NCBI GenBank assembly: GCA_034780895.1
Contig: JAUZTB010000127.1
Span: forward strand, 51,128,997 to 51,191,326
DNA length: 62,330 nucleotides
From: Rhynchobatus australiae
Lineage: Eukaryota
Direction: 5' to 3'
A program made the position numbers and the translations under genes. The notes beneath the pieces were generated by a model that had not been told where the DNA came from, did no database searches, and was given only the letters and a program-made list of their open reading frames with translations. This document shows, one piece after another, positions 6,899 to 57,527 of this stretch; the first letter of the stretch is position 1, and each line of letters opens with the position of its first letter.

Positions 6899-7629
6899 GT
6901 GATTGAGGAGGAGGTGTTAAAACGGCTTTCTGGCAGTGAACGAGTGATTTCTGAGGCACAGGTGCAGCTGGCAAAGATAGAGTCTGAACGAGAACAGAAG
7001 AGGCCAGAGGCTGAACGAGAGCAAACTCCGTTAAGGTTAGAGGTTGAACAGGAACGGGAAATGACTGGATTAAAGTTTGAGGCCGAGGCAGAGGAAAGGA
7101 AGGCCTATCTCGAAATGATGAAGATGGAGCTGGAAATGTAAGAAAAAAGGATGGAGATGAAAATGAAGCGATGGAGTTGGGAATCGGATTCTTATGATGG
7201 GTTTTAAGACAGTAGGGAGGTTCAATTCGTCCCTCCTTTTGTGGAAGATCAGGTTCAAGAGTATTTACAACGTTTTCAAAAGGTTGCTGTGAGTTCAAAC
7301 TGGCCAAAGGAAAGATCGGCTCTGATGTTGCAGAGTGTAATTAAAGGCAAAGCTTATTCTGCTTTATCTGTTGAGGATGCAGCTGATTATACCAAGGTGA
7401 AAAAAGCTGTGTTGAAGGCTTACGAATTGGTACCTGAAGCTTACAGACAAAAATTTAGAGATTGGAGGAAGTCTGTGGATCAGACGTTTATAGAATTTGC
7501 CAATGGAAAGAGAATATGTTTGGAACGATGGTGCATGACTAAAAATGTAGTTGGGGATTACAATAAACTGATAGAATTGATTTTAATAGAAGAATTTAAA
7601 AGATGTGTCCCAGCTGAAATAACAGCCTA
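6899..7629 (+). pseudogene. Degenerate Gmr1-like gag: coiled-coil followed by a SCAN-like capsid region
   Basis: E/K/R-rich coil, then ...WPKERSALMLQSVIKGKA...YELVPEAYRQKFR...LIELILIEEFKRC. In-frame TAA at 7139; truncated by the gap. Confidence 0.82.
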
Positions 7630-23251: not shown

Positions 23252-23297
23252 ATGTCGTTGTGCTTCCTGACGTTGATTCTACTGCAGTTATGGAACT
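23252..23297 (+). CDS. Exon 1: signal peptide [15 protein letters not shown](C)
   Basis: ATG at 23252, hydrophobic Leu-rich core, strong phase-1 donor T|GTGAGT at 23298. Too short to appear in the ORF track. Confidence 0.72.
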
Positions 23298-26200: not shown

Positions 26201-29200
26201 GGTAACCACTTTTGAAATATTACCTCATCAAACCCACGGATGTGCTAAATTTCAATGTATAATTTGCAGCCGGTTTGCAGTAGATTAGCGCCATTACGAC
26301 TTAATTTCGGGGTGACAGGAATCCAGCCAAATGTGATGCATGAGCGGGAGTTCAGGAGATACGACAGAGGTCACAGAAGATTAGCTCAATTGATTTTAAT
26401 GGCGGAGAGAAATACGAATAACAGGGCTTCGCCTTTTTCAGCACAGTTTCTCTGGCCATCAAAGAATTCGAAAAGGAGTGACTGTGAAGTAATTTTCATA
26501 ATGTACAGGGAACATCAGGAAACTTGGGGTGGACTCCCGTGAAATGATCCTTGTTATCCAGAGATGAGGTGGTTGGACATTTCGAGCTAATACATTACTT
26601 GTGGCTGCCATCACTATTTGTTTATTGTGGATTACCCATTGCGAGGGAGGGCACAGGAGTTCTGGGGAGTGAGCGGAACCCAGGAAAAGCGTTAATGACT
26701 GAATGGGAAAAACATTTCCCACTGAGGAATGAAATAATCAGAAATACTGAAATATATACTTCGAGAAAAAACAAGCTCAGGTTTCTTATCAACAGAATTC
26801 GACTGCCTTTACTAAGTGGAGGTCGTTATTTGTCCTTTTGAATAATTACCATGTAAATAAAGACAACGAACTCAACTTCTTTAGAAATATTTATCTGCGT
26901 CTTGAGTTATAAACACTCCAACGAGCTCCTGAAAATGGTCAATGCCCGTTCTCCCTTTGCTAATTCACTCCAATACCCGATCATCTCTGTACACCGGTGC
27001 TTTGAAAATCGACGTCAACTATGTGAACATACCGCCATTTTTCAAGTTACTTAATAACCTCACAGATTCAGCCCAGGTGTCAGCAATCGATCAAAGCACT
27101 TTCCGTTGCACATTGCGCATGTTGTAACTTCATTGCAGCCCAGAATAAATTTTCGGTTTCGTATGAAACCAAGAGTTAAAGGAGCCCAGCTTCACTCTTC
27201 TGCAACGGTCCAGAAATGCTCCCCGAGCAAAAGAATGCAACATTGAGTTTGCTTATTTTTATGACTTGTCTTTTTAACAGTTAGATTCATTTCATGGCGG
27301 GCAGCTTCAGCGAATACTAATNNNNNNNNNNNNNNNNNNNNNNNNNNNNNNNNNNNNNNNNNNNNNNNNNNNNNNNNNNNNNNNNNNNNNNNNNNNNNNN
27401 NNNNNNNNNNNNNNNNNNNNNGAGTTTGCTTATTTTTATGACTTGTCTTTTTAACAGTTAGATTCATTTCATGGCGGGCAGCTTCAGCGAATACTAATTC
27501 TAAATTTCTCCTTTCAGGCAGCCCCGTGGATTGTCAGGCTGACCCAGCAGGTAATACTGAGTTATATTCACTGAGATAATGTTTGGTGAGGAGCGATTCA
27601 TTGTAAAGAAAGATCCTTATTTTTAGTTAGGATGCTGCTGCTGCCTTCAAACCTCATTGAGGTCCCTGAGTGAACAACACCAGTCGCACTGTTGTTCGGA
27701 GCGCAAAGACGCTCACTGCTCAACTTAACAGTCATTGCTGTGGTGGAGATCGCCTGTGAAACCAACCTGGTTCTTCCTCATTGACCTGAAGGTTTGGAAT
27801 GTCATCCACACCATTCAGTGGCTGGGCACTCGCTGACAGGTCACTCATCACACGTTAACTAGGCTTTCATTTGTCGTCCCTCGCCCACTCTGTCCTCGGT
27901 GGAACGCCTATGGTGCAGAAGATCACCAGCCGACTCCCGATTTCTTGATGTTTGCGTAGATCGCGATGTATTTACGTTTCATTAGGGGTTTGGCCACACA
28001 CGGATATTACCGATGAACATCCCATGCCCGCGTTCACTGCGGAATATGGAGCGTAAGCTCACTGACACCTCAATACAATATAACAGACTTTTCTGCTATT
28101 TTCCAGAAAGCGTCGAGTTGCGGCTGGTGAATGGGGGCAGTCCGTGCGCCGGGAGACTGGAGATCCGATACAAGGGACAGTGGGGAACTGTGCAAGATTC
28201 GTCATGGGACCTGCCGGATGCCACTGTCGTTTGTCGAGAGCTGGACTGCGGAATTGCACTGGCCGCACCGCTCAAGGCTCATTTTGGGGAAGGATCAGGA
28301 CCCATTATGACAGGGAATGTTCAGTGTGATGGGAGCGAGGCCGCTCTTCGGGAGTGTGTCTCAGCAACATGGGAGCACTATGGGGCTTCGCACACGCGTG
28401 ATGCTGGCGTCATCTGTGCAGGTAAAATTCTGCATTTTGTTTCTTTCCCCCGAATTTGCTGGATTCCGTGAATTTTCGGAAGTAAAATATCCCGAGCTTA
28501 GAAATGGATGTGAGAATCAGCCACACCGACTGCGAACGAAATCAGGCGGCATCTATGGAGAGAGCAACAAAACTAACGCTTCAGATCTACGAAATTGCAT
28601 CAGAAATGGTAGCGATGTTTTCATGAAACACGATCGATATCGACTCTTTTCCCTCTTTGCAGATGCTACACTATCTGCCGGGTGTCCCTTTCTGTTTTTC
28701 TTCATAGTTCTAATATCTGCAGCGAATATCCTAACCAGCAGGAAATGTTATCAGCTCCATCCAACATCCCATTCTCAAATAAACAGCATTTACCGGACAT
28801 GCGCATTGAGCTCAGATTGGACCCGAATTCGTAACTATCTTGGGGTCATGAAAAATCCTGTATTAATAATATATGCCGGCTTTCCCGGTGGCAGCCGGAT
28901 CCTTACTTTATTAAAATTTCATAATAAAGACCTCAACTCGGTGATGGCACATTTCGTGTCTCCTGTACGTTCCACGAAGTATTTCCCAGTTGATAACAGA
29001 TAATTAGCTTTATCCAGGCTGCATGTTGGTTTGTTCTCCTAAAACTACAAAATGACCAGTGCGACACACATCCAATCTCCTGACAAATGCAGCACGAAAT
29101 ATCACAATAACTATTTGGTAGTTTATAAATAACTCCAACGAATATTTTCTGCGTTTTCGTTTTTATCAGGACTATCCTCAGTTGATTCCAACATTGCACC

Positions 29201-32200: not shown

Positions 32201-35200
32201 AGGACCTTGAAATCGTCTGTTCAGGTACAGTCTCTGTTGTTTTCAAAACAAAAAACATTATTTTGTTAGCAAGAAAGTATCTGCGCCCGCCTCTACATGG
32301 ATAGTAACATACAGGAAAGATGCACATCTTCATGAAAAGTAGGGTCTCAACCGGGAATTTGGGTTGAAATTTTGTCAATTATCTAGAAGTTAATGCAATT
32401 TCAAACTGAATATTTGTTTAAAATCACCGCAGAATTTACTTTTGGTGTCATTTCGCGATTCTGTGGGAGGACAAGTAGCTCACCGAAACAGAAATATGAA
32501 GCAGATAGTTGATCTGGATTTCACGTCTAAAATAGATTGATTAGCAATGAGGATTATTGTCTTCCTGAGAGATGACACTTTGCTGATATCTGCTGTCTCA
32601 GCTGCTCATCAGACTCTCACTGAACAGGTTACAGTGGTGGGGGTTTGGGTTGGGAATGGATATTTCTAAGCGTTGCAAGTGAATATCAATGAGGTTGTTG
32701 TCGAACGAGCTTTGACTGAGGAAATTCAGTAAGTTCAAGTACTGTTCTGCTTGAGCTAATTTGCTGTCCTTCCATTTCATCGTTTAAAAACTTGCGTTTT
32801 TGATGTTATTTTGGATTTGCGTGACACAAATACTTGATTGTTTCCCACCAGTTAAGGATATTATCTTCTTTTCTATCTTTTTTTTCATAGTAGGGGAACG
32901 AAGGGTAACGGGGAGGCAGGTGGAGTTGAGTCCACGGCCGGATCAGCCATGGTCTTATTGAATGGCGGAGTCGGCTCGACGGGCCAGATGGCCGACTCCT
33001 GCTCCTAATTCTTATAATATAATGTTATCTATCACATGCCAACTTCGTTCCAATTCTCTTGAACGTTTTGCATCTCTATATTTATTTTCTCAATTTTCCA
33101 TTTGGCTTCCTCCAACCAGCAAATTAATAGATTGCATACAGTGGTGACCTCATGGAGGTTTATGAAATGATGAGGCATAGATCAGGTGAATAACCAGCAT
33201 ATTTGCCAGGGTAGGGGAGTCCAAATCTAGAGGGCATAGATTTAAAGGGAGCGGGGAGAGATTTCAAAGGGACCGGAGGGCAACATTTTTCGCAAAGGTC
33301 GTAGTGCATCCATGGAAGAATCTGACAGAGGAAATGGTAGAAGCGGGGAAACTTATGATATTTAAAGGACATTTGGAGAACTTCATACAGATGAAAGGTT
33401 CGGAGCGATAAGGGGCAAATGCAGGCAAACTGCATAAGCTCACTTGGGCAACTTGGTCTGCATGGACAAGTTGGACCGAGGAGCTTGTTGTCAGTGCTGT
33501 ACAAATCTGTGCTCTGTGATTATATCCCTCTTGGTTCAAGATGACCAATTTTTTTTTCTGTTAGCTACTGCAACAACAGCATCCTCGCAACATGAAAACT
33601 TTTTTTTACTCTCAAATGCATGCTCATATTTTACAACAGACTGCGGGGTGACTTATTTTGTGCAACAAACTTTGGTGTGGCATCATCTTGATCACTTTGT
33701 GGAACATACCGAAATATTAAAAACTTGTTTTCATTCAGCAGAGGGGAAATGCTCTAATGTTTCCAGGAGTTAAAGGTAATTTCTCAAAAGCTTGCTAAAT
33801 AATTACTGGGCAAGACATAGTGGGTGGAACCATGACCTTTCTATTTCTCAGAATATCCAGAAAGAGGGACCATAACTTCGAAATACGGATTAGTTAATTC
33901 GGGTCTGTGGTGAAACGAAATTTGTTCACTCACTGTGGAGTGAATCTTTGAAATTCTTGATCCAATTGGTGTTTCTATACCCAGCCGTTGAATTTTTTTC
34001 AATAGAGAGATCCATCAGTTTTTGGTTTGACAGGGAACCAAGCGAAGTGAGTTCAGTCGAGGAAACTGGTACTGAGATTATTTTTAAAATCGCCATGGTT
34101 TTATTGGATTGCTGAGAAAGTGCGAGGTGCTAAATTCCGATTTCTTTTGCCATGCTTATGTTACTGGCCAGTGACATCGAGAACAACTTTCAGCATGGTC
34201 ACATATTTTCTTTTCCCTCCGAAAAAATAAATAACCTATCCCGCCATCCTTTCTGGATTCCAAGAATTTCCTGACAGCGATTCAGTTGGATTCTCATCTG
34301 TCAGCGTGACTTTATATTTAAGTTCACCTACTATGCTGTTACTGCAAAACGCAAATTTTCTTGGTAATTATACGCGGGTAATTATACGAATAACAATAAA
34401 TGAAATGGAATCTGACATTTGACAGTTGCAGATGTTTCAGGATCTTTAAAGAAATTGGTTCGATTTGGAAGGTTATCACTTACAGCGGCTGGCACAGCAG
34501 CAACTACTTAAACATTTTGGATGCAGGCCATCAGATCTGATTGATATGTTGACTGCATATCAAATCATATCTTAAGTGTTTTCTTTTGCAATGTTTTAAC
34601 TAACATGTTCCTNNNNNNNNNNNNNNNNNNNNNNNNNNNNNNNNNNNNNNNNNNNNNNNNNNNNNNNNNNNNNNNNNNNNNNNNNNNNNNNNNNNNNNNN
34701 NNNNNNNNNNNNTCTGATTGATATGTTGACTGCATATCAAATCATATCTTAAGTGTTTTCTTTTGCAATGTTTTAACTAACATGTTCCTCACTCGACAGT
34801 ACTTGAAAAATGCGAAGTCGTAAAATGTTATGTTTTTACTTTTTTCAACATCAACTGTTTTCTAGTGGAAAATCTATGATAGTGTTTCTGAAAAATGTTT
34901 GATGCAGTTTTTCGGCTGGGAAATTTCTTAATATGATCAGGACCTCTTTTAATGCCTCAGCCATCTTTCCTCCGTTTTTCCTGCGAGATTTGTGCATACA
35001 ATACTGAAAATAAATGCAACTACACACAATGGCGTGCAAACATATCGAATTGTTAGAAAATCACGGCATTAAATGTTGATACCTTTTATTCACTTGGAAT
35101 TCAGCATTTCAGAGAAACCTTTTGGTATGTTTTAAGTGAGGCCACATATTTTTAAAATGTAGGCACCATTTGCCTGGTCCATGTTTGGCCAATTCCTTCA

Positions 35201-38200: not shown

Positions 38201-41200
38201 ATGTTGCTCACTGAGGTTGTGCTATGCGTTTTCCCTTCGTTGAATAAACCCATTGTTTATACATCCGGCATCTATTTTCTATTGAAACAAATGTTTTTTT
38301 TTCTCGCGTCTATCAAATTTGTTTCTATTTCATTTCATTGCTTATCTCATGCCTCGCGCACATCACATTTTGCGGAGCTCTTGTTCCCAAAATATGGACT
38401 TAACAGACCTGTTCTTTCCGGTGAGATTCATGCTCGGGACAGAATAAAATACCTCGTTAAATGCTAAAATAATATACTGTAATCTGCTGTTTACTCTGGG
38501 AACGAAATGTGTCCAATAAAATACAGGGTTGACTTGCTAGTTTCTATTTCTATTTAAATTAACCACCAATTTAATTTGAAAACTACACACATTGAAGACT
38601 TGAAGTGGATCTGAATAGTTTGTAAGTTAATTGACTGTGAACTTTCAGAGATATCGTGAGATTCTGTTCCGCTAAAAAAACGATAATTTTGGGTTTCTTA
38701 CCCAAGATGATGTCCCGCAGCAGTATTGCTTCATGGGTTTGTCCATTGGAAATATTGCTCTCCAGACCATATGTTTATTTTATGTACTGAATCAGTTTTC
38801 AATATTTTGGAAATGTACAGCTAATGTTTAAATAATTGACAATATTTTTATTTTTAAGATTAAACGATTAATATTTTTCAAATTATTTTAAAACATTTCT
38901 ATCGCTTCATTCCCTGAGCATCAGGGACATTGAAAAACAGTGGTAAATGGATTTCTTCACATATTTTGTCAGAAGACCATGAGATTCCTGGGCTCTGTTG
39001 CAGGGGGTGAGAGCCGGCGGGTATGATGTTGGCGGGTTGATGATTGATGAAATTTCTTCACCTGATCACCAGACGCCACCTATGGACTGCAGTGCTTCAT
39101 GAGATGCGTGAACAGATACAAATGGAACATTGAAATGTAAGAAGGGAATGTGAGTCACCGAAAAGATTAGCATGATTCAGCAAGTATTTGAAACATCTTT
39201 CCGTGCACCATATACATGCTGGGAATGTCCCAGTGTTCAGATCGATGTGCACAATTCCTAAGGGTAACTACTTCACGGAATCTAGTAGTTTTTGAAGAAC
39301 TTGATGACGACGACCCATAAGGAATTGTACACGTATGCGTCTGAAATCTTGACATGGTGCCGATGTTGCATGTGATGTAATTACAATGTTCTCATTAAAC
39401 ATATTTAAATATAATGGTGATTTTTGCCACATAGATCACAAGACTCTGAGACTCGCATCTGGGGAGAGCCGGTGCTCCGGCCGTGTTGAAATCCAGCAGG
39501 GAAATACGCTGGGGACGCTTTGTGGCGTTTACTTTGATTTTGAAGATGCGGCAGTGGTCTGTGAACACCTTGAGTGCGGAGCAGTAACCGCAACCCCGAG
39601 AGGAGATCCCTTTGGAAAAGGAACCGGTCCATTCTGGAAACATAAATACTCGTGCCGCGGGAATGAGTCCCTATTATGGGATTGCCCTATTTCATCCTGG
39701 GAACAGTTCAGCTGCTTACATGGAAGTGTCGCCAACGTCATTTGCTCAGGTGAGTCCTCTTCATCTTTTCAGCTGAAGTGAAATGTTGGAGATGCAAAAC
39801 TGGAAAACACGAACACATGCTCTCAGTGCACAATATCCGTGCTGGTCAGCAGGTGGCTATCGACATGAACTTCATTTGTCCTTTCGCATATCCATGTACT
39901 ATGCTGCTGATTTGCCTATCGCTCTGATAGCCAAGGGACAAATCACATTCGCCAATTAACCTTTACATTGTTGGCATGGGAAATAAACTGGTGCAGCTAG
40001 GGGCACCTTGCACAGTCAAAGTGACAACGTGCAGGTTCCAAGCAAACTGCAGCCAGTTCAATGATCGTACGTTCTGCATCAACAGTCCTTTCCTGCCATT
40101 TCCCCCATTATTTTTAATTCTCATTCTCTGTCTTGAGTATATCAGGCAGCGGAATCTACGTCGCCATCAAGGATATAGAATTCCAAAGATTCACCATCCT
40201 CCGACTGAGGAACTTTATGGTCATTTCAGTCTGAAGGGGTTAGCTTTTATATTGACACTATGACCTTTTGTTCCCGACTCCTGAACTAGGGGAAACATTC
40301 TTCACATTACTATACTGTCAAGTCCTCGATGAAAGTCGCGTGACGCTTATTTTTGTAAACTGCATGGAATAAGGACTTCGTCATGTTGTTCTCTCATCAG
40401 ATGACAGACCTAGAATCTCAGGATGAAAATGTTAAACATTGCTGAACACAATTTCTGGAAACCTCATCCTTCCTTTCAATACATTATACTTGAGATATGG
40501 CTTCATCAAGGCTCTCTCCGATATTAGGAAGTGAACACGACTACTGTAGGCAATCCTCTGACAACAGAACCCATAGCAGTTTGCCTTTTTATTCCCCCAG
40601 TCAACTGCATGTAAGATTACAGGGCTTTGTATACAGAAACGCCCAGGTACCTCGAAACGTCAATACTCCCCAATCCCTTTCATCTAAAAACCTAAGCAGT
40701 TCTGTCTTATTTCTACCAAATTCTACAAAGTAACTTTTCTCTTTATTGAAATCCATTCACCACACGGTTGCTCACTTAGTCACCTTCTGTACGTTGATGC
40801 TCCATCTGTGATCATTGTGTCAAAGGCCGAAATTTAACAGCATCGATGTTTCATATTGTATCCACACCATCGCTTGAGTGTCCATGTAGTTTCATGACAT
40901 CAGCGGATTTAAGAATATCTAATTTGCTTCCCTCTGTTAACTCATCAAATTGGATTCCAAATGAATACGTCTGAAGCACGGCTACCTAAGGCATTCCAAA
41001 AGTTTTCTGCTGACCTGAGAAAGACCCGCACGCTCCTATTTATTTATGACTGGGAACAAATGCTAAATCAAGATTTAGCTAATACATTAGAGAAATTTCA
41101 CATTCTCTGATCTTTCTCGGCAGCCACCTATCCAGGAGCGCAGCACATGCCTTCAGGTAATCCGCACAGTCCACGTTCACTCCACCCACTCACCAAGTGC

Positions 41201-44200
41201 ATCAGAACCGCTCTCAAATGCATCAACATATTGTAGAAATATTACTTCTCTTTCACAATTTTAAATCGACTTTTCTCAGTCATATGGTTAATTTAATTAT
41301 GTCCTGATATCAGATAGCTTATCATAGACCTCAGTCGTTTGATATGAACTACCAATTTCAGGCTGCAGAGTGTCGCCCCTTTTCTTATGCAGAGGAGTTA
41401 CATTTTCTTTCCCACAATTTACAGGAAATAATCGAAGCTGCCTCTTTCAGATTGATATTGATAGTGGAAAAAAATATTAATTGTGTTAAAATACACAAAT
41501 CATTTGCAGATAATCTAAACGACAGCAACTGTGGCTGCCTGTGAAGTGAAATATTGTTTTGGGTGTTTGATGGACAATTACCTGGGATACTTTGATTTGT
41601 CTGCATTCAAGCTTGTTGCAAGTGTTGGAGTTGCACTTAGTGAGGTGAAAGTTTTCCATACTACTCTTGAAATGGGTCTCATCAATGACTCGAAAAAATA
41701 AGGTGTCAGAAACTGAGATTTTTTTCTGAAGATGCCCAGCTTCTGGCCTGCTGGGCTATTTCCGTGGCTGATCCAGATGAATTTCTAATTAGTAGTGATG
41801 CTCATAATATTGATGAGGAGTGTGAATGATTCGAAAATTGTGCGACAATCACTGAATATCCCCAGTTTTGAATATAGGATGGAAGGACGGCTGGGGCTGA
41901 TGTAGCTGAATATGGTTGGGCCTGGGTCACTGTTGCAGTGACATCCTGAGATTGGTGATTGTGATCGTTCAAATTACGGCCATTTTTTTTGTGTGAGAGA
42001 TGTAACGCCAGCCTTGGTTATATGTATCCTTCGGTGCCAATTGCTTTACCAGAGTCCGTTGTTTGCAGGCGAAGAAACAGACTAATCAACTTTCATGTAA
42101 ATGACAGATAGACTGGATGCAGTCCTAGCTGTAGGATGCAGGATCCTCATCTAACTATTTCAGCCTCGACGACTGAATGGTACGGGTTTAGCATAATTTT
42201 ACACGTAATTCTTCAATTCTATCCCTTTTCATTTCCCGGCACCTTGCATGCAGGTCTTACGTGCTGCAGCTGGGACACTGAGTCTCCACTAGCGCCTGCT
42301 CTGTCATACATTTTGAGCCAATAATTCTGACCACATTGAGTGGATAAAGCTGGCGAACACCTCTTTCTGTGATGCTCAGGCGCTCTGTAATGTGCTAGGG
42401 TTTTCCTGGATGCACTCAATATCCAAATCTCAAACGGAAACGAAAGACTATGAGAAACATCCCACCAACTCCATTATACCAAAACACAATTTATCACTCT
42501 CTTTGAATTAGCTATTGTGTTCATCATTCCAGAGATTAACATATCGGCTGGTGCGAGAAAAAAACATGTGCGCAGTCAAGCAGCTCCACCATTCTAAAGA
42601 TTAAGGCTCGTCTGATTTTGATTTCATTTTCCCAGCTAACGATGACAACCGTTCACCACCTTACATATTAGGGCGGCACGGTAGTGTAGCGGTTAATGCG
42701 ACGCTATTATAACACCACGATCGGGCTAAGGAGTTTTTACGTTCTCCTGTGTCTGCGTGGGTTTCCTCTGGGTGCTCCGGTTTCCTCCCACATTCTAAAG
42801 ACGTACGGGTAGGTTAATTTGGGGTNNNNNNNNNNNNNNNNNNNNNNNNNNNNNNNNNNNNNNNNNNNNNNNNNNNNNNNNNNNNNNNNNNNNNNNNNNN
42901 NNNNNNNNNNNNNNNNNNNNNNNNNCCCGAGAGGAGATCCCTTTGGAAAAGGAACCGGTCCATTCTGGAAACATAAATACTCGTGCCGCGGGAATGAGTC
43001 CCGATTATGGGATTGCCCTATTTCATCCTGGGAACAGTTCAGCTGCTTACATGGAAGTGTCGCCAAGGTCATTTGCTCAGGTGAGTCCTCTTCATCTTTT
43101 CGACTGAAGTGAAATGTTTGAGATGCAAAATTGGAAAACACGAACACATGCTCTCAGTGCACAATATCCGTGCCGGTCATCAAGCGGCTATCGACATGAA
43201 CTTCATTTTTCCCTTCGCATCTCCATGTACTATGCTGCTGATTTTCCTACCGCTCTGATAGGCAAGGGACAAGTCACATTCGCCAATTAACCTTCACATT
43301 GTTGGCATGGGAAATAAACTGGTGCAGCTCGGGGCACCTTGCACAGTCAAAGTGACAACGTGCAGATTCCAAGCAAACTGCAGCCCGTTCAATGATCGTA
43401 CGTTCTGCATCAACAGTCCTTTCCTGCCATTTCCCCCATAAATTTTAATTCTCATTCTCTGTCTTGAGTACATCAGGCAGCGGAATCTACATCGCCCTCA
43501 AAGATATAGAATTCCAAAGATTCACCATCCTCCGACTGAGGAACTTTATGCTCATTTCAGTCTAAAGGGGTTAGCTTTTATATTGACACGATGACCTTTT
43601 GTTCCCGAATCCTGAACTAGGGGAAACATTATTCACAATACTGTCAAGTCCTCGATGAAAGTCGCGTGACGCTTATTTTTGTAAACTGCATGGAAGAAGA
43701 ACTTCGTCATGTTGTTCTCTCATCAGATGACACGCCTAGAATCTCAAGAATGAATATGTTAAATATTGCTGAACACAATTTCTGGAATACTCATCCTTCA
43801 TTTCAATACATTATACTTGAGATATGGCTTTATGAAGGCTCTCTGCAATATTAGGAAGTGAACACGACTCCTGCACACAATCCTCCAACAGAACCCATAG
43901 CAGTTTGCCTTTTTACTCCCCCAGTCAACTGCATGTAACATTACAGGGCTTTGTATACAGAAACGCCCAGGTACCTCGAAACGTCAATGCTCCCCAATCC
44001 CTTTCATCTGAAAAACTGAGCAGTTCTGTCTTATTTCTACCAAATACTACAAAGTAACTTTTCTCTTTATTGAAATCCATTCACCACACAGTTGCTCACT
44101 TAGTCACCTTCTGTACGTTGATGCTCCTTCTGTGATCATTGTGTCAAAGGCCGAAATTTAACTACATCGATGTTTCATATTTGTATGCACNNNNNNNNNN

Positions 44201-47200: not shown

Positions 47201-50200
47201 TGAAAAGGGAAGCAGGCTTGAAGGAAGGCCTGTTCTTGCTCCTATTTCCTGTGCTCCTATGTTTGATTCTGTCAGATTTGATAGGGCAGGTTCTGCTGGT
47301 TCTGCTTTGAGAGCTAAGGAACTACGTCTTTGCAATGCTGCCAATATGGGCAGATTTTACCAGAGGCAATTCTCCTGTCACTTTGGACAATCTCATAAAC
47401 ATAACAACAGAAGGGGGTGTGATACAACAGTGCTCATATTTCCATTTGTGCTTATGTTTTTATAAGTGCTTCTATTTTTCATTTCCCAGCATCTTGCATG
47501 CAGGTCTCAATTGCTGCAGCTGGGATACTGAGTGTCCACTAGCGCCTGCTCTGTCATACGTTTTGAGCCAATAATTCTGACCACATTGAGTGGATAAAGC
47601 TGGCGAACACCTCTTTCTGTGATGCTCAGGCGCACTGTAATTTGCTAGGGTTTTCCTGGATGCACTAAATATCCAAATCTCAAACGTAAACGAAAGAAGA
47701 TGAGAAATACCCCACCAACTCCATCATAGCAAAACAAAATTTATCACTCTCTTTGAATTAGCTATTATGTTCATCGTTCTAGAGGCTAACATATCGGCTG
47801 GTGCGAGAAAAAAAACATGTGTGCAGTCAAGCAGCTCCAACATTCTAAAGATTAAGGCTCGTCTGATTTTGATTTCATTTTCCCAGCTAACGATGACAAC
47901 GTTTACTGCCTTGCGCAGTAGGGCGGCACGGTAGTGTAGCGGTTAAGGCGATGCTATTATAACACCACGATCGGGGTAAGGAGTTTGTACGTTTCCCTGT
48001 CTCTGCGTGGGTTTCTTCCGGGTGCTCCGGTTTCCCCCCACATTCTAAAGATGTATGGGTAGGTTAATTTGGGGTTTAAAATGAGAGGCGCGGACTCGTT
48101 GGGCCGGAAGGGCCTGTTGCCACGCTGTAAATAAAATTTAAAAAATAATAAAAAATAAAGTTCCTACCTATCCAAGTATAAAATATGCATAATGGCTACT
48201 TGTAAACCCTTTGCAGAGAGCACTTCAAAGACTTCAAGGCCCTGTGGAAAAAAAGACATGAGCTCATCCCTGTTCGAAATGGGTGAAACTCTTATGTTTA
48301 AACAGTGACCCACCCAGAGTTCTAGATTGTCCAACCTGACAAAACGTTCACTTTAACGTAAACGTTCAATCGTCCTGGCCCTCAAACGAACATTCCAATA
48401 ATTGTGGTGTGAGGGGGAAGGAATGAGTGTTTGGAGTCGTAAGTCGTGTTAAGTAAAATAGTTCAGGTTGCGTAAGTCAACTGTGCCACTCGAGGTCTTC
48501 AGTACAGAGTTCTGCAGGGTAATGCCCGAGACCCAGTCTCCTTCAGTTTTGCTTCATCAATAACACACCCAACATCATAATTGAGGGATTCAATGATAAT
48601 TGCAAATGTTGAGTTTAATTGACAACCTGTCGACCACGAAACAGTCCATATGTCCACACAGCCTGTCGCAAACAAATTCAAATATGGGCTGTTAAATGAT
48701 GTGCAACAATACGAGGTTACGGTCAGCTCAAATAAGAGACAGCCAAGACACATATCGTTGAAATATAATGGCTTTCACCATCACTGAACACCAGTGCATC
48801 AACATTGCGTGGTCTTTGTTGAGCAGAAATCCAACTGGAGTACCCAGGCAAAGCTGTGGCTACGACCTTTTGGTATCCCAACCCCATTGCAACAGCTGAG
48901 TCGCAAAAGTGACATATGTAATGAAATGCCGTCCGCTTGACCGGCTGTGTGCAGCTTCAACAACATTCAAGAAGCATGAATCCCACCAGGGCAAACAACC
49001 GACTGAATTAGTACTCTTTCAACTGCTCTAAACATCAGTTCCTCCCCTTGCTGGGCACTATTAATACACGGTATATTAATTACAAAATTATTTGCAGTTA
49101 GACATCTTGGTTACTACAGCAGCATCTTTCAAAATCTACCAACAAGCAGGCAAAGGGAACTTTACCAGCTGCAAGTTTCAATTCAAGTCATAGTTACCCT
49201 GACTTGCATATTTGTTGCTAGTCTTTCATGTTCCTGTATTCGTCACCCTGAAATTCACTATCCAGCTCGTTATCCGTCGACCTAAATCACAAATGCCGTA
49301 CTTCAAAGGGGTGGCGTCCTCCACCTTCACAAATATAACTGGGAATGGTCAATAAATGCTGACGTCGCCAGCGATGCCTTGATCCATCTATTGAATAAGG
49401 AGCAGAATGATAAGTCCCCGGATTCTTTTTGGTTTCAGAAAAGTTTCCTGTCATTCCTCCAGGTACCAGAACATAGAAAAAGTTTGTTCAAACATTCGCG
49501 ATTAGACAAGCAGATTAGTGCAGGACAAAAAAAGTCTTGTTGGTTTCCTTAGCGAGGGAGACCCGATACTCTCACCGGTAATCCAGGTCTAGTCTCAGAA
49601 AGTTCTAACTCAACAGTGACATTGCTTCCCTAAATTTGAATTTAGTCCCTTTCTCATAAAGTCTCTTCGTGCATTCATCCAAGACGTTTCTGTAAATTCT
49701 AAATCATCGAGGCGCCAGTACCGATTCCTGTGGTAAACCAATCATTACTTTTGCTAATCAATAAAATTCCAATTTATTCTCAATTTCTTTACCCGATAAC
49801 TAATCAAGCGTCGATCCATCCAGACCCAGTGTAAAGGTGTGTTATGTGAATCATTAACTTTGTTTATCTTTCCACAGATTCTGTCAGAACTGCTGCGTGT
49901 TTCTAGAATTAAATTTCTGCTTTATTAATATCCATGCAATTTTGTTGCATCTGATATAATAATCATTTTCGGTTACGACCTTTTCAAACGCCTTCACAAA
50001 TTGCAATATATGTTAATACAACTGATAAACATGATTAGTTCCAGTTCCTCTCCTTGCAGAGCACCAAAATGGAAAAAAAAACAGTTGCCCCTCACTTTGC
50101 CCTCATCACTTGCCCCTCATCCATCTCTGTTGCATGGTTCCCTGGTACCATCAGCAGATCATTGCGTTCCAGTCCACTCCAAATCAGATCCACATGGAGC

Positions 50201-53200
50201 ATCGAAATTTAGGCAGCTGGTTTGGAGAGGGGCAGTTGTAATTTACAGTGTGTGCCACTGCAGGTTCACGTGTGCGCAACCATGAAAACTTCAGAAGTTT
50301 CGCAAATAAATTACAGAATCCGCTTTTCCACTGCCCGATGTTCATGCAACCTCTTCAAACATTTAACAATGGTCATTCGAGCTTTATGTTTCCTTTGGAA
50401 ACCATGCCGACCATTCAACTTGTTGCTTTTATGGATATTCTTCTGCTCCTCTTTTTACGAACGATTCCAATCTCTTTTACTCTCCTGACATCTATTACTC
50501 ATTTTACACGTTCCTATTCACTCTTTGAGTATTTGTAGCCTGAAGGGAATAATCGAATATCTTTAAACTTCACCCTTAAAAGTTCGAATACCCATCAATT
50601 TAATGATAGGAAGCACTTCTGCCCCATTTCCATTTTCGTTATTATGACTGCAGGTGAAAATTGGATTCCGAGACTGACGAATGGGGAAAGCCGCTGTGAT
50701 GGCACAGTGGAGATATATCACAACCACAGATGGGGCAGAGTTCACGATCATTTCTGGGACCTTAATGACGCCAACGTGGTCTGCAGAGAGCTCGACTGCG
50801 GTGATGCGATATCTGCATATGATTCTTCGAAGTATGGAGAGAGTGCACGGCCCCTGTTGGTGAATGGCGTTCACTGTAACGGAAGTGAGTCGCAGCTTCG
50901 CAACTGCAGCTTAAAGACGTTTACATCATTTCCCAATGTCAGCAGTGGCGTTGGGGTCTTGTGTTCAGGTACATAAATAGTGTTAATGTGATAGATTCCT
51001 CATGCAAGTTTCTAGTTCATTAAGAAAATCTCTGTCTCTTGTCGGGAGAACAAGATATTAAATTCTGGAATGCATTCTGTTGCAAACTGCCCCACTTATT
51101 TTACTTCGTTTTCCTTCATTTCTCATATTTTCTCCTTCATGTTCCTCTCTTAAACCGCATTCCATCTCTCTTTGATACCTGCACACCTTTTCGCACTTCC
51201 CACATTGCCGTTCCATCGATCTCTGCGTATTCCACCCACTTCTTGTATGATCCGCTTCGTATTTCACTACTTTCGTTTTCCGTCTGTCTGAGTCTCCAGC
51301 AGCCTTTCTAATTTCCATCTCCCCCCAGCAATACCTCATTTCTTCCCCCTCAACCATCTTTTTTTCCTTCCGGTTGCCTCGTTCCATCCACAGACCTTCC
51401 GCCTTCCATTCCTCTCCAAAACAGATCCAAGTGGAGCACTGATATTTAGGCAGCTGCGTTGGAGAGGGGTGGTTGTAAATTTCAGTGCTGGCTACAGCAG
51501 ATGCACCAACATACAACAATGTTCTGTCATCCATCGTTCAAATTGACGTCCTGTGGTTTATAACTGTAAGCAGGTGTTTCGAGGCGAAACACGATGAAGT
51601 TGATGAGATGATTTCTCAGTTTTGACAGGGGTTCTGGAATCTTGCTGAAAAACCAGAACGATGCAATATTTGTGCAGTGTCATTATTCCAGGATTCAGCT
51701 TACGTGATTCATATGTTATCACAAGTACTGCAGCAGCGGGAAGCAACTCAGTTATGTCACGTCGTCCAAGTGCACCGGCGTGAGTGTTTGACTGTGGTTG
51801 TGTGCTCTGGACCGATAGTGGGAGTGGTTGGGCTCCGAAGGATTTCCATGTGAGTGAAGGAAATTAGTTGTGGGAGAGTATATCTGACACAGATGAAAAT
51901 GATGAAGTATTTGTGAGGTGAAAGTGCGCGCCATCTATAGTGAGAGATATGTGCAAAATCAGTGTCGGATAGATTATACGAGCGGGTATAAAATAAATGC
52001 AAAATAAAGTAGATTAAGACTAATAAAGAAATTGAAGTAGTTTCTATCGTGATGTGCTGTGCGATGAGAATATGTGGTGCTGATAATGGATTTCCGCTGA
52101 ATGAGGTGTGTTAGAGATAGCGGAGAGATGGACGGCATTGAACCCGAGGAACTGAATAGAATATCGTGAATAACTGATCTGTGAAGAGGTCGACGAAGAG
52201 TATAGAGCATCAATACTGCAGCGGTATTTATTGTCCTACTTAACAGATTCTGTGTTGATCTGTTCAGATATGCCCGTTCAAACTGCAAGCAGCAGCAAGA
52301 TTTCACGTCAGACCTGAATGTCATTGCGAAGCTGGAAGAAAATGTTTTCCTTCAGCTGATCAAACAAAAAATCCTGACTTGATCAAAGACATCACCAAGT
52401 CGAGTCGAGTTGAAAGTGTAATTCACATTTGTTTGTTGACCAACAGAACACCTGAAGTTAAGGCTAACCGACGGTGGAAGTCCATGTGCTGGACGAGTGG
52501 AGGTGTATTACGCTGGAGCGTGGGGCTCAGTTTGCAGCGATTCCTGGGATATGGTTGACGCTGGTGTGGTTTGTCGACAACTGGGTTGCGGAAATGTTGT
52601 GAAGACAAGTCGCGCTGGTTATTGCGGACAAAGCCCAGGTCCAATATGGTTGGATGAAGTGACCTGTTTGGGTAACGAATCTTTCCTCTGGCAATGTCCT
52701 TCAGCACCATGGGGTAAACACGACTGTGCTCACAAAGAAGATGCAATGGTTATGTGTTCAGGTAAAGATGCCATGAATCCGTTCGTTTTTTGAAGTGTTG
52801 TCTGTCGAATTTGACACAGGAAATCCAAGAAAACATCTTGTTGAAACAGCTGTTCTGCACATATTCCTGTTTCAACAAACAACACTTCTATTAACATTCC
52901 CCCCTGGCCTTCTCTCGATTCATCTAAATGACATCGATATAATGTCCCTTTGCTCTGTTTTGACAAGATCCACATTCAAACATCTCCTAATGTAAATGGT
53001 ATTGCCCTCAAATACGGATGAGGTATATTTGAGACGATAACACTTATGACACTCCTGGCATTGAAGAGCTGCTTTTGCTAATCATTAACGCCAAGAAGAT
53101 TTGAGATACAGATAAATCAAGTATTCATTCGATCGATACGATCATGCAAGGAAGAATCTCTGATAACCGTCTCCCGGCTTGCCAGAGTACACTGATTTAT

Positions 53201-56200
53201 TTCCGTATTTGAAGCCAAGACAATGATTTTAATATAACAACATGTGTCCTTTAGATAAATTCGTATTGTCGGTAGACATGAAAACACTTCATCGTACCCT
53301 TGTGGCCTTCCATGTGATTGAACGAATCCTAGAGGTATCTGGAACAGTATATTTGTTCTTCCAATCACATCCCATCTTGAAGAGATCCATGGCGTTCCCG
53401 GTTACCCTTACCAACCGAAAGTCAACGTGACAAAGAAATACTCCTATTATTCCTGTCCAAATTTGCTGCCACTATCTGGCACATTTTGAACAGAGATAAT
53501 GTAGACACTGAGATAATGTAGCCTTCCCCTTGTTCCTGTCCTTCCCAAAGGGTTCCAGGAACTCCAGCAACATCTGGAAGGTTATTTCCCTGATTTTCCC
53601 AGTGCCAGATTATTGTCAAAATATTAGCTTGAATATTTCTCTTAGTTTTATGATACCACAGGTGTCTTTTTTTCATTGTCCAGGAACATGCGCGCGCACA
53701 CACACGCACACACAATTTAGCTGTAATATTCAAATTCACCAGTAATGTCATTCTCCTTGATACAACAGCATCACCAATCAACAATGTACTGAAGCAATAG
53801 ATATAATGCTTGCACCCTCTCTGTACTTCCATAGCTATTTCATTTTATATATTCCTATCTCTCTTTGATATTCCTGCTCCGCCCCGAGTTGACTCTCCAT
53901 TTTTATTGACTGCAATGCAGTTAGCAGGACTGCTGGCACAAAAGCGTACATTGAACAACCCAGAAATATTATAGACAATAGACAATAGGAGCAGAAGTAG
54001 ACCATTCGGCCCTTCGAGTCTGCACCGCCATTTTGAGATCATGGCTGNNNNNNNNNNNNNNNNNNNNNNNNNNNNNNNNNNNNNNNNNNNNNNNNNNNNN
54101 NNNNNNNNNNNNNNNNNNNNNNNNNNNNNNNNNNNNNNNNNNNNNNNCCTAACTTCCTCTACACATGTCACACTGCCACCCAACTTTGTATCATCAGCAA
54201 ACTTGCTAATGTTATTCTCAATGCGTTCATCTAAATCATTGACATAGATCGTAAACAGCTGCGGTCCCAGCACCGAGCCCGTGTTTGTGATTTCTGCAAA
54301 TTCCTAAATTTATTCACTATTCTTTTACAATTTTATATATTTTTTTCCTGAGAATCACAGTTTTATTTCATTATGTTGAGATTCCAGATATTTTAATTAT
54401 GTTTCTGCAACCACTAAAAATCATCGCTGAATGCAATGGTTACCAGATGCAAGGTGAATTGTGAAATTGCACGAGAACGCTGCCGAAGACTGATATTTAT
54501 TTCCCATTTCATTTACAGAGCACAGAGAAATTCAACTGGTGAATGGAGTGCATCGCTGTGAGGGGAGAGTGGAAGTGTTCTATAATGGGTCCTGGGGGAC
54601 AGTGTGCTCAGAAACACTGGAGCCGATTGATGCAAAGGTGATCTGCAAACATTTGCAGTGTGGTCCCCTCCAAAGTATTCGATATGACACCCAGAAATTC
54701 GGACCGGGATCAGGACCCATTTGGCTTGATGGTGTGGCCTGCATGTCACACGAGTTAACCCTTTGGCAGTGTCAATCAAAACCCTGGGGTGAACACAACT
54801 GTCAACACTCAGAGGATGCAGGTGTTATTTGTGCAGGTAATTTCGCGAATAAATCAGCATGATCACATCATTTCAAATAACATTATCGAATGAATAAAAG
54901 TGAATAATTTCCATTCTCGACAGACACCAAAATGCAGGATCGATCTCAGGGTTCAAAGGGCTGTTTTCGCGATTCGGATTCTGTTCCTTACAACTCGCCA
55001 GGTACATTTATTTCTCTGTTGTCTGCAAATTGAAACTGTTCCTGTTTCCTTCTTTTGACACGAAATAATTAATAAATTATTCTCTTTGATAGAATCCGGT
55101 GGACAGGTGCGAGTGGTTGGAAATGACAACAGCTGCTCAGGGAGGGTTGAAATATTTTCCAATAACAACTGGTCCACTGTGTGTGATGACTCCTGGGACA
55201 TGGCCGATGCTCATGTGGTCTGCAGGCAACTGGGTTGCGGACCCGCTCAATCGGCCCCAGGCGGTGGAGCTTTTGGTCAAGGTGATGGTGTGATCTGGCT
55301 GGATGAGTTGAAATGCACGGGAAGTGAGTCCTTTCTTTCCGACTGCGCTTCTTCGTCGCTGGATCGGCATGACTGTGATCACAAGGAAGACGCCAGTGTG
55401 ATTTGTTCCGGTGAGTGTCTCAGAAATCCGCTTCACCGACCGTTGATTATTTTTGCAGGTGTTGCATTTTTTGTGCAAATTTTCAGAGAACAAAGATCTT
55501 GAAATGCCTCTGATGTGACTTCCACAGATCCGGGCTTGTCTCCGACTGAGGATTCTGCATCAAATTTTGTAAGTGATCAGCAATGATAAAGTCTTAGTCT
55601 TATTATTAGAAAAAAAATGCCCTGGGCTTCACCAACATTTTATGTGGCAATGTGAACAGTATGCAACATTCCAGGGCACTCCGGCCCTCCCATATTTGAA
55701 AATTGCAGTTAAACTCATTAATTTCATTTAGTATTACGCTATGATTATCCACCAAGATTATCGGGTACATGATGTAGGTACACGGCACTTTCCCTGATGC
55801 TATGTACGCAGCAATTCTGAGGGAATGTTTAGCCAGCACTTTGTGCACAAGATGCGGTTATGAAACTGATGAATTCATTTCCAGTTTTTGATAAAGACAA
55901 GACACGGAGTTGGCCTTAAGTAGTATCTGTTCTTATTATGGACAGGGGCGAGAGACCGTCTCCATTCCGGTGGCTGTCTGTATTGTACTTGGTGTCCTTT
56001 TCATTTCTGGCCTGGTCTCCTTGTTTGCCGTAGCGAGGAGCAAGACAGCAAGAAGAGGTGAGACTCCATTTGTGCAGCTCAATTTATGTTGCCACTCAAA
56101 AATGGTTTCTTATGCAGTGGCTTCTCCGAGTTCTTTGCACGTTTTCAAAACAAAATGCGCCCTGAGGCGGCTCTATCCATTCACGTTATCTGAGCACCAC

Positions 56201-57527
56201 GAGCTCCATGCACCCCTTGCAAACTAATGACTCCAGAAAAGATCAGTTAATGTCACTCAAATTTGCTTCATTTAAATTGCCCCGTGTTTCTATGTCGTCA
56301 GGCGGCGGACGTGCATTTTGTTCTCCGAAAACCCCGTATTTGCACTCACAGCAAAGTTCCTCCACATACAGCCGATCTGAATATAGTACCAAACGTTGAC
56401 CGTCTCTTCGATTGCTGATAAACGTACATCAAAGCTTAATTTCTCAGACCTTTCTCTCTCTCTCTCTCGCTCTCTCCAACAGACTTTGCAAGTGGCGGAT
56501 GGGGTTACGGTGCTGATTTGTATGAAGCTGTTTACGAAGAGGTTGAAAATAATCCCTATAGTCAATATTATGTTCCGAGAAATTGTTCAGGTTCGCTTTG
56601 CATTTGATGCCGAATATTTACCGCATAATTACTATATCTCTTTATTAACCCTCTTAATCTCTGCACTGGTTGGTCACGGACAGCGATCCCCCCGATATAT
56701 TCATCCGGCGAACTGCCTTAAAATCTGTAAAATCAGAGTGTCATATGTGTTGGAATGCTTGCAAAGATTCCGGGATATTTCGCGTTGATAAAGCATTAGA
56801 TTCTTTTTGTTTGACATTTTGTGGAAACGTCTGCCTGCAAATCGTTTCCTGCTAATTACAGACTCTCATTGACGTGCGACCACGGAAGTAAGAGCCAGAT
56901 TTTCTGAAATAATCTTTCACGTATGGATTATCGACCCTAATAATGTCTTGTTATTTTCTGTCAGCTTGGATTTGTGAATCTAAAGCAGGAAAGAAACTAC
57001 CTCGGAAGATCTTGGGTAGAATACTCTATAGCAATATGTTCCTAAGTTCCAATGTAATGTCATTATGAAGTTCAGGCATCTGCATGCATTTTCCGTGAAA
57101 AATACTTTCTCCCACTTCCAGGTTCCTTTTCTGACAATTACGACGAAGCGGAGCCTGGAGAAACTGACACATTTGGAGGTGATTTGCTGACACGAGGTGA
57201 TAATGCCAACGAAGATCTCTCCAAACCAGGTGAGTTGAGATAATTACATTTCCTCATAGTATTAGGCAATGATGAACAGATCATGTTCATTGACAGAACA
57301 TGCTGCGATAGTATTTAATGTGCAACTAACGTGACATCTGCATCATCCCGTCTTCAACTCGTTATGGGTCTATTATCTGTCTTCCCACAGAGTGTGTCAC
57401 TTGGACCCGAGGGAACTCAGGTAGTCCGGTTACATATATACATGGTGGCGATCTTTCCTTTGACATCTTGCCCCAGTGCTCCGACAGACCAAGTGAGAAT
57501 ATTAATTTACCACCATGTAGCGGGTAA
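23252..57527 (+). CDS. Multi-exon CD163/WC1/SCART-like group-B SRCR transmembrane receptor. Model: join(23252..23297,27518..27550,28107..28421,31970..32224,39435..39749,50654..50968,52447..52761,54519..54836,55093..55410,55528..55568,55946..56057,56483..56590,57122..57229,57391..57527), about 911 aa
   Basis: Hand-spliced. All introns are GT-AG, phases are compatible, and the total of 2736 nt is divisible by 3 with no internal stop. Architecture: signal peptide, 7 SRCR domains (one per exon, the group-B hallmark), stalk, TM, Tyr-motif tail. Additional exons may be hidden in N-gaps, and exact orthology is not assigned. Confidence 0.85.
25460..25670. mobile_element. Short palindromic non-autonomous repeat
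   Basis: ATGCTGGAGGAGCTCAG...GCAGCATC pairs with GTTGCTACCCGACTTGCTGAGTTCCTCCAGTATTT. Related motifs at about 13090-13135 and 60610-60730. Confidence 0.6.
27518..27550 (+). CDS. Exon 2: 33-nt micro-exon (C)[10 protein letters not shown](E), completing the leader/N-terminus
   Basis: Acceptor TTTCTCCTTTCAG|, donor CAG|GTAATA, phase 1-1. Joins exon 1 to SRCR1 in frame. Confidence 0.65.
28107..28421 (+). CDS. SRCR domain 1 exon (6-Cys variant lacking C2 and C7)
   Basis: [20 protein letters not shown]...[10 protein letters not shown]...VVCRELDCG...DAGVICA. TTCCAG| acceptor, G|GTAAAA donor, 315 nt. Confidence 0.95.
28930..29330 (-). mobile_element. Degenerate CR1 endonuclease-region fragment
   Basis: [10 protein letters not shown] resembles the CR1 APE motif GVxYRPPNS. 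Confidence 0.45.
31970..32224 (+). CDS. SRCR domain 2 exon (short, 85 aa, C5-C6 loop deleted)
   Basis: [21 protein letters not shown]...ICG...VCKELSCG...[30 protein letters not shown]| acceptor, G|GTACAG donor, 255 nt, open frame. Confidence 0.88.
33145..33520 (+). mobile_element. CR1 3' end
   Basis: CTAGAGGGCATAGATTTAAG (RGHRFK) and tail GGCAACTTGGTCTGCATGGACAAGTTGGACCGAG...GTGCTGTA. Confidence 0.75.
34713..37165 (+). repeat. About 1.2-kb diverged direct duplication (34713-35888 versus about 35989-37165)
   Basis: Collinear throughout, with scattered substitutions and indels; separated by a 100-N gap. Confidence 0.9.
38449..38522 (-). repeat. Perfect 74-bp inverted copy of 36477-36550
   Basis: Exact reverse complement, checked base by base. 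Confidence 0.92.
39435..39749 (+). CDS. SRCR domain 3 exon (resembles the CD163/WC1 'c'-type domain)
   Basis: [20 protein letters not shown]...[26 protein letters not shown]...VANVICS, 8 Cys. CATAG| acceptor, G|GTGAGT donor, 315 nt. The type assignment is recalled similarity. Confidence 0.95.
39595..48075 (+). repeat. Multi-copy SRCR3 exon/intron unit. Copy A about 39435-42825; copy B about 42926-44790; copy C about 45160-46234; 47476-48075 repeats 42226-42825
   Basis: Direct collinear matches with copy-specific substitutions and indels. Confidence 0.9.
42926..43080 (+). CDS. Second copy of the SRCR3 exon (3' part only; 5' part lost in the N-gap)
   Basis: [31 protein letters not shown]...VAKVICS. 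Two substitutions versus 39595-39749; intact G|GTGAGT donor. Confidence 0.75.
47921..48158 (+). mobile_element. V-SINE with a CR1-type tail (paralogous copy at 42671-42825)
   Basis: A-box-like GGTAGTGTAGCGG head, GCGTGGGTTTCTTCCGGGTGCTCCGGTTT core, GGGCCGGAAGGGCCTGTT tail, A-rich end. Confidence 0.8.
50654..50968 (+). CDS. SRCR domain 4 exon (6-Cys variant lacking C2 and C7)
   Basis: [21 protein letters not shown]...[10 protein letters not shown]...VVCRELDCG...GVGVLCS. TGCAG| acceptor, G|GTACAT donor, 315 nt. Confidence 0.95.
52447..52761 (+). CDS. SRCR domain 5 exon (canonical 8-Cys)
   Basis: [22 protein letters not shown]...[11 protein letters not shown]...[18 protein letters not shown]...[17 protein letters not shown]| acceptor, G|GTAAAG donor. 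Confidence 0.96.
53971..54280 (-). mobile_element. Well-preserved 5'-truncated CR1 spanning a gap
   Basis: [32 protein letters not shown] (RT core) and a CR1 3' tail at 53971-54047. Confidence 0.88.
54519..54836 (+). CDS. SRCR domain 6 exon (canonical 8-Cys)
   Basis: [30 protein letters not shown]...[18 protein letters not shown]| acceptor, G|GTAATT donor, 318 nt. Confidence 0.96.
55093..55410 (+). CDS. SRCR domain 7 exon (membrane-proximal, canonical 8-Cys)
   Basis: [21 protein letters not shown]...[11 protein letters not shown]...[17 protein letters not shown]| acceptor, G|GTGAGT donor, 318 nt. Confidence 0.96.
55528..55568 (+). CDS. Stalk micro-exon [14 protein letters not shown]
   Basis: TTCCACAG| acceptor, |GTAAGT donor. 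It converts phase 1 to phase 0, which the phase-0 TM exon requires. Confidence 0.8.
55946..56057 (+). CDS. Transmembrane exon [37 protein letters not shown]
   Basis: About 23 hydrophobic residues followed by a basic stop-transfer segment. CAG| acceptor, G|GTGAGA donor. Confidence 0.9.
56483..56590 (+). CDS. Cytoplasmic exon 1 [36 protein letters not shown]
   Basis: Long CT tract plus CAACAG| acceptor, phase 1, WC1-like AVYEEV motif. The donor G|GTTCGC is weak. The frame differs from the ORF-track prediction here. Confidence 0.8.
57122..57229 (+). CDS. Cytoplasmic exon 2 [36 protein letters not shown]
   Basis: CCCACTTCCAG| acceptor, G|GTGAGT donor, 108 nt, acidic NYDEAE motif. Confidence 0.8.
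57391..57527 (+). CDS. Putative last cytoplasmic exon [45 protein letters not shown]
   Basis: CTTCCCACAG| acceptor, open in phase 1 to TAA at 57525-57527. A GTAAGA donor overlaps the stop at 57524, so the exon could instead splice onward. Confidence 0.55.

Follow-up and report, generated by a model that had tools for sequence, protein, structure and literature searches.

Which kind of receptor is encoded by the series of SRCR domains found on contig JAUZTB010000127.1 of the cartilaginous fish Rhynchobatus australiae (assembly GCA_034780895.1, positions 51,128,997 to 51,191,326), and how does it relate to WC1, SCART1, CD163 and DMBT1? The whole stretch of 62,330 nucleotides that was analysed is referred to here as the window; its own numbering is used for all positions and all features lie on the + strand. 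The initial annotation, made from the letters alone, had proposed a WC1/SCART-like receptor rather than a relative of DMBT1 or CD163, a proposal which is supported by a domain tree, a tail profile and the position of an interdomain spacer. Taken as a whole, the evidence is best explained by a group B SRCR receptor with type I membrane topology that belongs to the WC1/SCART branch, namely one of several elasmobranch paralogues, with an ancestral-looking plan; to this explanation we assign a probability of roughly 70%. Membership of the WC1/SCART (CD163c-alpha) branch as such is very probable.

Six-frame motif scans of the window confined the SRCR signatures to the + strand between 28 and 55.4 kb. 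The gene extends from an ATG at 23252 to a stop at 57527 (Table 1). Initially 14 exons were counted, with AG/GT ends at all introns, which when joined encode 911 amino acids with a single terminal stop and no internal one. After comparison with other sharks, reading of the introns located a 15th exon (54924-55001, 78 nucleotides, phase 1) between domains 6 and 7 which keeps the frame, and the final model has 15 exons, 14 GT-AG junctions and an open frame of 937 amino acids. The 13 junctions predicted earlier all recur in the model, with AG/GT ends throughout, but their number had to be raised to 14 because the 78-nucleotide exon had been overlooked. The protein consists of a leader, seven group B SRCR domains, a membrane helix and a tail with eight tyrosines, and the complete, phase-consistent gene described before (leader, at least seven SRCR domains, stalk, transmembrane segment and multi-tyrosine tail) is indeed present with all its exons.

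The Pfam SRCR family was matched by eight of the 12 translated pieces (seven full exons and one partial copy, E 4.8e-11 to 6e-35), while the membrane exon and the three tail exons matched no Pfam family. The domains have the properties of group B, i.e. 100-110 amino acids, six to eight cysteines and one exon per domain, with the exception of domain 2 (85 amino acids, six cysteines). The junctions are predictions from sequence and homology. The small exons are not chance picks, since the leader end, micro-exon, stalk, membrane and first tail exon align in unchanged order with the protein P0041 of the skate Amblyraja radiata (561 of 853 positions identical). No additional SRCR exon of the window was detected by tblastn with 27 chondrichthyan proteins as queries, a search which also overlooked the spacer exon. 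Sequencing run X1, at first taken for RNA, covers introns and contains no exon joints, so that it was treated as DNA and says nothing on expression. A pseudogene was rejected in view of the frame, which is open across 15 exons, and the gene is almost certainly real.

For the lettering of the domains we followed Herzig 2010 (PMC2906472), in which the order a-b-c-d-e-d-b-c-d-e-d' is given for WC1, m-l-b-c-n-d-e-d' for CD163c-alpha and h-i-j-k-b-c-d-e-d' for CD163A, and the n domain, a tail motif and chicken hybrids of the form a...c-n-d-e-d' are defined. The typing relies on an IQ-TREE analysis of 131 domains and 102 columns with sheep WC1.1, bat SCART1, opossum CD163 and DMBT1-like references, the latter being automatically named or ZP-bearing proteins; mammalian DMBT1, SSC5D, SSC4D, CD5 and CD6 are not part of this tree. 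Domain 4 groups with the n domain of SCART1 (domain 5 of the bat protein; 95/94, and 99/96 in a second tree), domain 6 falls into the e clade together with WC1, SCART1 and CD163, and domain 7 into the d-prime clade. Domain 3 belongs to the b/c clade and is nearer to b (94/79), domain 1 lies in a clade of sharks, rays and tarpon (91/90), and the shark b/c-position domains form subclades of their own. None of the seven window domains groups with any of the 22 reference domains of DMBT1-like or secreted proteins, none groups with the bat m or l domain, and none is an h, i, j or k domain of CD163. A per-domain phylogeny, the kind of check outlined in the initial annotation, yields in this form no clustering with the DMBT1-like references that it contains. 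The traits of the CD163/WC1/SCART family are all present, namely membrane-proximal e and d-prime domains, b/c-type domains and the interdomain exon.

The tail comprises about 125 amino acids, spread over three exons. A ten-row membrane-and-tail profile from sharks, rays, turtle and bird gave 127 matches among 1.84 billion representatives; 98 of them have SRCR domains, the other 29 look like membrane/tail fragments, and 110 carry Y-(Q/E)-(D/C/E)-(I/L), the tail motif given for the WC1/SCART branch in PMC2906472. Of 29 matches that were looked up 28 had a name, one being the white shark 'antigen WC1.1-like'. The named ones include sheep and camel WC1 and proteins of rodent, tenrec, wallaby, platypus and bird, as well as turtle, amphibian, coelacanth, sturgeon, gar, teleost and shark. 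A tail-profile word search gave mostly turtles and a few birds among the 120 of 445 matches listed. WC1-like proteins are also found by database name in degu, gundi, ground squirrels, tenrec and wallaby (P0265, P0249, P0221, P0269, P0378, P0380), four of the six being matched by the tail profile as well, a wider range than the artiodactyls of the 2010 study.

A second, tetrapod-free profile was made from 14 tails (the window and 13 of shark/ray type) and scored on 24 tails with 200 shuffles each. It recognised sheep WC1 (30.9 bits), camel WC1.1 (44.9), platypus (34.4), turtle (72.3), coelacanth (75.4), tarpon (40.6) and bat SCART1 (18.5), each above 200 of 200 shuffles, and 14 WC1-like tails from mammals to sturgeon, sheep included, reached 30.7-75.4 bits, above every shuffle. 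The opossum CD163 tail was not recognised (0.3 bits, reached by 24 of 200 shuffles). Scores that some shuffles also reached were obtained for macaque CD163L1 (5.0 bits), the DMBT1-like ends of chicken (-1.7) and alligator (1.0), two unrelated teleost SRCR proteins (0.2 and 4.8) and a second, helix-less end of bat SCART1 (1.7). From sharks to sheep, the tyrosine has retained its acidic surroundings, Y-E-E-I/V. A canonical ITAM or ITIM (immunoreceptor tyrosine-based activation or inhibition motif) receptor was considered and rejected, as neither pattern fits the eight tail tyrosines.

The spacer between the e and d-prime domains points in the same direction as the tail. In a comparison of 18 proteins, a length of 17-30 amino acids is common to the window, to WC1 and SCART1, to turtle, owl, echidna, amphibians and tarpon and to five shark/ray models, whereas two elasmobranch models have 4 amino acids and CD163 and CD163L1 have 1; the other interdomain linkers of the window protein have 0-4 amino acids. 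As to the membrane helix, 11 of 14 aligned elasmobranch-type segments contain an acidic residue (E/D) (P0018, P0007, P0038, P0024, P0046, P0042, P0040, P0438, P0414, P0195 and P0196), a possible counterpart to a basic residue in some partner receptor; the helices of the window gene, the skate orthologue and P0065 have none.

With SCART1/CD163c-alpha the window gene shares an n domain that has lost C2 and C7, followed by the d-position domain, e, spacer, d-prime, helix and a Y-E-(D/E)-(I/V) motif. It differs from SCART1 by the lack of m and l, another N-terminal domain and the short domain 2, and its tail has three exons besides the membrane exon, whereas two in all are described for bovine CD163c-alpha in PMC2906472. 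With ruminant WC1 it has in common the tail homology, the motifs A-V-Y-E-E and, further along the tail, Y-D-(D/E)-A, the e-spacer-d-prime end, a separate membrane exon, a multi-exon tail, the existence of a multigene family and a domain 1 with six cysteines as in sheep a. However, WC1 has 11 or 6 domains instead of seven, no n domain and a tail on 4-6 exons (PMC2681482) instead of three, and domain 1 of the window did not group with a. A direct orthologue of WC1 was rejected, since the seven domains include n and do not follow the layout of WC1; the lack of m and l equally argues against SCART1 itself, and the failure of domain 1 to group with WC1 a and the motif YEEV indicate that the gene is an orthologue of neither. 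CD163 (M130) and CD163L1 (M160) share b/c, e and d-prime domains with it, and some CD163L1 show a weak membrane similarity, but the window has no h-i-j-k series, the spacer is located elsewhere and Y-E-E-I/V is missing in the four CD163/CD163L1 tails tested; an orthologue of CD163A was rejected because of the lacking h, i, j and k. The closest described layout is that of the chicken/turtle WC1/CD163c-alpha hybrids, and seven domains in the order of the window are found in turtle P0037, Xenopus P0289, Bombina P0287 and tarpon P0282. Unlike these hybrids, the sharks have b/c-position domains in separate subclades and a short domain 2.

When domain 3 served as the query, 84 proteins were retrieved among 146 candidates. 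Of these, 27 come from 12 shark and ray species, and all 27 chondrichthyan matches are named DMBT1-like or M130-like in the databases, in line with what the initial annotation had suggested automated labels might be. Its assignment to a cartilaginous fish also agrees with the closest proteins, which are from skate, sawfish and sawshark. The Amblyraja protein P0041 ('M130-like') is colinear with the window protein over 853 amino acids (66%), has the same short domain 2 and, judged by sequence, is the probable orthologue; it differs in that its model, an automated annotation only, is without the spacer exon and ends in a shorter tail. For six of the seven domains of the window, the partner in the tree is the skate domain at the corresponding place in the series, which makes a batoid source probable. 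Two main elasmobranch layouts were recognised among 35 proteins typed, which differ at position 2 by a full b/c-type or a short domain. The short domain keeps the pairs C1-C4, C2-C7 and C3-C8 and has lost about 20 residues together with the C5-C6 pair. It occurs also in proteins of skate, sawfish, sawshark, sevengill and zebra shark, which makes it older than the split of sharks and rays, and among the compared proteins it was seen in elasmobranchs only. A single-sequence fold prediction gave a mean pLDDT (predicted local distance difference test) of 55.8, too low to use. The short domain 2 is one unusual trait of an otherwise known receptor type.

Mobula birostris, Heptranchias and Heterodontus have six proteins each, some of which may be fragments or isoforms. 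The gene is thus a member of a multigene elasmobranch family labelled DMBT1-like, M130-like or WC1.1-like, and the uniqueness implied before was overstated, given a multigene family across jawed vertebrates with a white shark member already bearing a WC1.1-like name. Some long elasmobranch models (P0007, P0414, P0438, P0450, P0022) repeat the whole domain series; they look like tandem neighbours fused by the predictor and point to gene clusters. No description of WC1/SCART-type genes in cartilaginous fish was found in the literature searched, which excluded most subscription papers and possibly thereby coverage of the shark CD163 family.

How could such a receptor work? By analogy with WC1, signalling through tail tyrosines on leukocytes is probable. 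The SRCR array of the ectodomain would bind microbial or cell-surface ligands, the receptor would cluster with an activating immunoreceptor on the leukocyte, Src-family kinases would phosphorylate Y838, and the phosphorylated Y838 would recruit SH2 proteins and amplify activation. Phosphorylated Y-E-E-I is the classic ligand of Src-family SH2 domains. For bovine WC1, Gillespie 2021 (PMC8356672) reports that SRCR domains bind Leptospira, that co-crosslinking with the T-cell receptor leads to phosphorylation of tail tyrosines by Src-family kinases and that mutation of these tyrosines blocks the response. The cell type is the weak step of the proposal, and an expression mainly on gamma-delta T cells seems less likely than not. 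In cod, a T-cell cluster with putative T-cell receptor gamma and delta expresses a gene described as CD163-like (PMC9276791). Searches for family terms had no match in the text and one PDF supplement of a nurse shark spleen atlas or in the main texts of chicken single-cell studies.

Several observations weigh against the assignment to the WC1/SCART branch. The tree is small, with 102 columns for 131 rows, and lacks the mammalian proteins listed above; domain 1 stands apart from sheep WC1 a in both trees, a forced grouping not being rejected (approximately unbiased test, p 0.30), and domain 5 is not joined to tetrapod d and is called d by position only. In the tail, the CD163L1 of rhinoceros (18.3 bits, level with SCART1) and elephant (13.9) scored above every shuffle, both without the motif, and several targets had originally been found with a profile that contained sharks. 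The window motif YEEV ends in V and thus lies outside the published I/L pattern; at the homologous place the skate orthologue and most paralogues read YEEI, and V is also seen in two caecilian proteins. Finally, the segment (I/L)-(E/Q)-Y-Y-T of other shark paralogues, turtles and coelacanth has no recognisable exon in the window (the intron 56591-57121 shows only a faint, unconvincing trace); it is lacking in the skate model as well. Pairwise scores are a further such point: DMBT1 beats any CD163 domain for three of five domains (116.9 vs 109.3, 80.6 vs 76.6 and 116.2 vs 107.1 bits), the other two being about level. Together with the database names, these scores would speak for a membrane-anchored mucosal agglutinin like DMBT1 or SSC5D. 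However, a pairwise search of solved structures, which covered five of the seven domains, cannot type domains because generic domains score best, and the higher pairwise scores with DMBT1 would explain the names. DMBT1 consists of near-identical SRCR repeats with spacers and of CUB and ZP domains. The window model has no CUB or ZP exon and ends in helix, tail and stop, its linkers are short except for one and none is a Ser/Thr/Pro-rich spacer, and with no domain among the DMBT1-like references this possibility is largely refuted and very remote. The main rival places the gene in the same family but regards it as a CD163-like endocytic scavenger or pattern receptor of myeloid cells, the tyrosines being YxxPhi internalisation signals. 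Y834 and Y838 both fit this pattern, the b/c, e and d-prime domains are common to CD163, and bovine CD163A was reported in macrophage tissues and gamma-delta T cells alike (PMC2906472), from which it follows that expression is loose in the CD163 family. The lack of any h-i-j-k domain, the unrecognised opossum CD163 tail, the spacer located as in WC1 and SCART1 and the conserved acidic tyrosine context nevertheless make this explanation unlikely.

The assembly itself has to be considered too, as ten of the 13 N-runs in the window lie inside the gene and exact 77-base overlaps flank four of the 13 gaps on either side, a mark of short-read assembly. The gap behind the stop hides nothing, since a DNA contig joins 57473 to 57651. 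Intron stretches between 34.5 and 48 kb recur with 86-92% identity, the intron downstream of domain 3 being present in three copies and the upstream stretch in two; the repeated blocks (34536-37163 and 39595-48075) are split by gaps. The second, partial copy of the domain-3 exon has two differences in 155 nucleotides, both changing an amino acid, and a third copy possibly lies in the gap 45060-45159. Because of this partial copy among nearly alike repeats the true number of SRCR domains may be seven, eight or more, and pieces of alleles or paralogues may be included in this region. The term 'intact' used in the initial annotation was overstated and calls for caution, as the model crosses gaps and a repeated domain-3 module in the 5' half. 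These features, and the several paralogues per species, could mean that scaffolding has pieced the 5' half together from close paralogues or alleles, in which case no single gene would have exactly this chain of 15 exons. We consider this quite improbable, since number and order of the seven domains agree with the skate protein, with six of the seven pairing by rank, and since 52545-53643 and 55545-56746 are each spanned by a single contig without added depth (in the best DNA run, which may be the source sample). The latter also makes three whole genes less likely than a domain-3 module that is repeated locally.

Table 1. Features of the SRCR receptor gene in the window (feature, position, strand, remark)
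Exon 1, start codon and hydrophobic leader	23252..23297	+	hydrophobic residues 2-16; exon end matches skate P0041
Exon 2, 33-nt micro-exon, leader end and probable (predicted) cleavage site	27518..27550	+	aligned to skate P0041
SRCR 1, six cysteines (C2, C7 lost), position of WC1 domain a	28107..28421	+	Pfam E 3e-29
SRCR 2, shortened (85 aa), without C5-C6 pair and its loop	31970..32224	+	Pfam E 4.8e-11, profile 2-61
SRCR 3, b/c type	39435..39749	+	b/c clade 99/98
SRCR 3 exon, partial second copy; 5' half inside gap	42926..43080	+	153/155 nt identical
SRCR 4, n type (C2, C7 lost), diagnostic of SCART/CD163c-alpha	50654..50968	+	clade with bat SCART1 domain 5
SRCR 5, d position	52447..52761	+	Pfam E 6.4e-35; type by position only
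SRCR 6, e type	54519..54836	+	clade with WC1, SCART1, CD163 e domains, 100/99
Interdomain (spacer) exon, one cysteine	54924..55001	+	78 nt, AG/GT, frame kept
SRCR 7, d-prime type	55093..55410	+	d-prime clade 91/92
Stalk exon	55528..55568	+	aligned to skate
Membrane exon (helix residues 792-812, none of them charged), with basic stop-transfer stretch	55946..56057	+	
Tail exon 1, six tyrosines including conserved A-V-Y-E-E-V motif (Y838)	56483..56590	+	
Tail exon 2, acidic, Y-D-E-A motif (Y863)	57122..57229	+	aligns with Heptranchias P0018
Tail exon 3 and stop	57391..57527	+	aligns with Heptranchias P0018

Two further elements of the window were noted. A high-copy repeat at 53970-54280, in the intron before domain 6, reaches a depth of >14,000 in two DNA runs. 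Open frames at 6893-7870 have a SCAN-like match (E 1.6e-7) and are probably what remains of a retroelement gag; the Hemitrygon model P0024 has a comparable piece fused into it.

The arrangement of the receptor, which starts with domain 1 and two domains in b/c position and continues with n, d, e, spacer, d-prime, membrane helix and tyrosine tail, looks like an ancestral plan of jawed vertebrates, as is suggested by tarpon, Xenopus, Bombina and turtle proteins whose seven domains follow this order. The earlier family study spans mammals, platypus and chicken, i.e. about 300 million years (PMC2906472). Domain n, an end of the form e-spacer-d-prime and the signalling tyrosine occur in sharks and rays as well as in tarpon, coelacanth and amphibians, which would carry the WC1/SCART plan back to the jawed-vertebrate ancestor and suggests that this type of family is as old as the jawed vertebrates. 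A more speculative, and on balance doubtful, combination of these points is that this receptor and the T-cell receptor originated at the same time, in the earliest jawed vertebrates, and that it served gamma-delta (or new antigen receptor, NAR-TCR) T cells as a diversified co-receptor and pattern receptor. The elasmobranch multigene array would then have variegated expression, WC1, SCART1 and CD163 would be rearranged descendants, the subfamily with the short domain 2 would have its own ligand specificity and the paralogues with acidic helices would pair with a partner carrying a basic residue. Taken by itself, the gene adds a further paralogue to a family that public annotation contains already. 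Once the DMBT1-like and M130-like labels are corrected, it would provide a concrete candidate marker and co-receptor of shark gamma-delta T cells.

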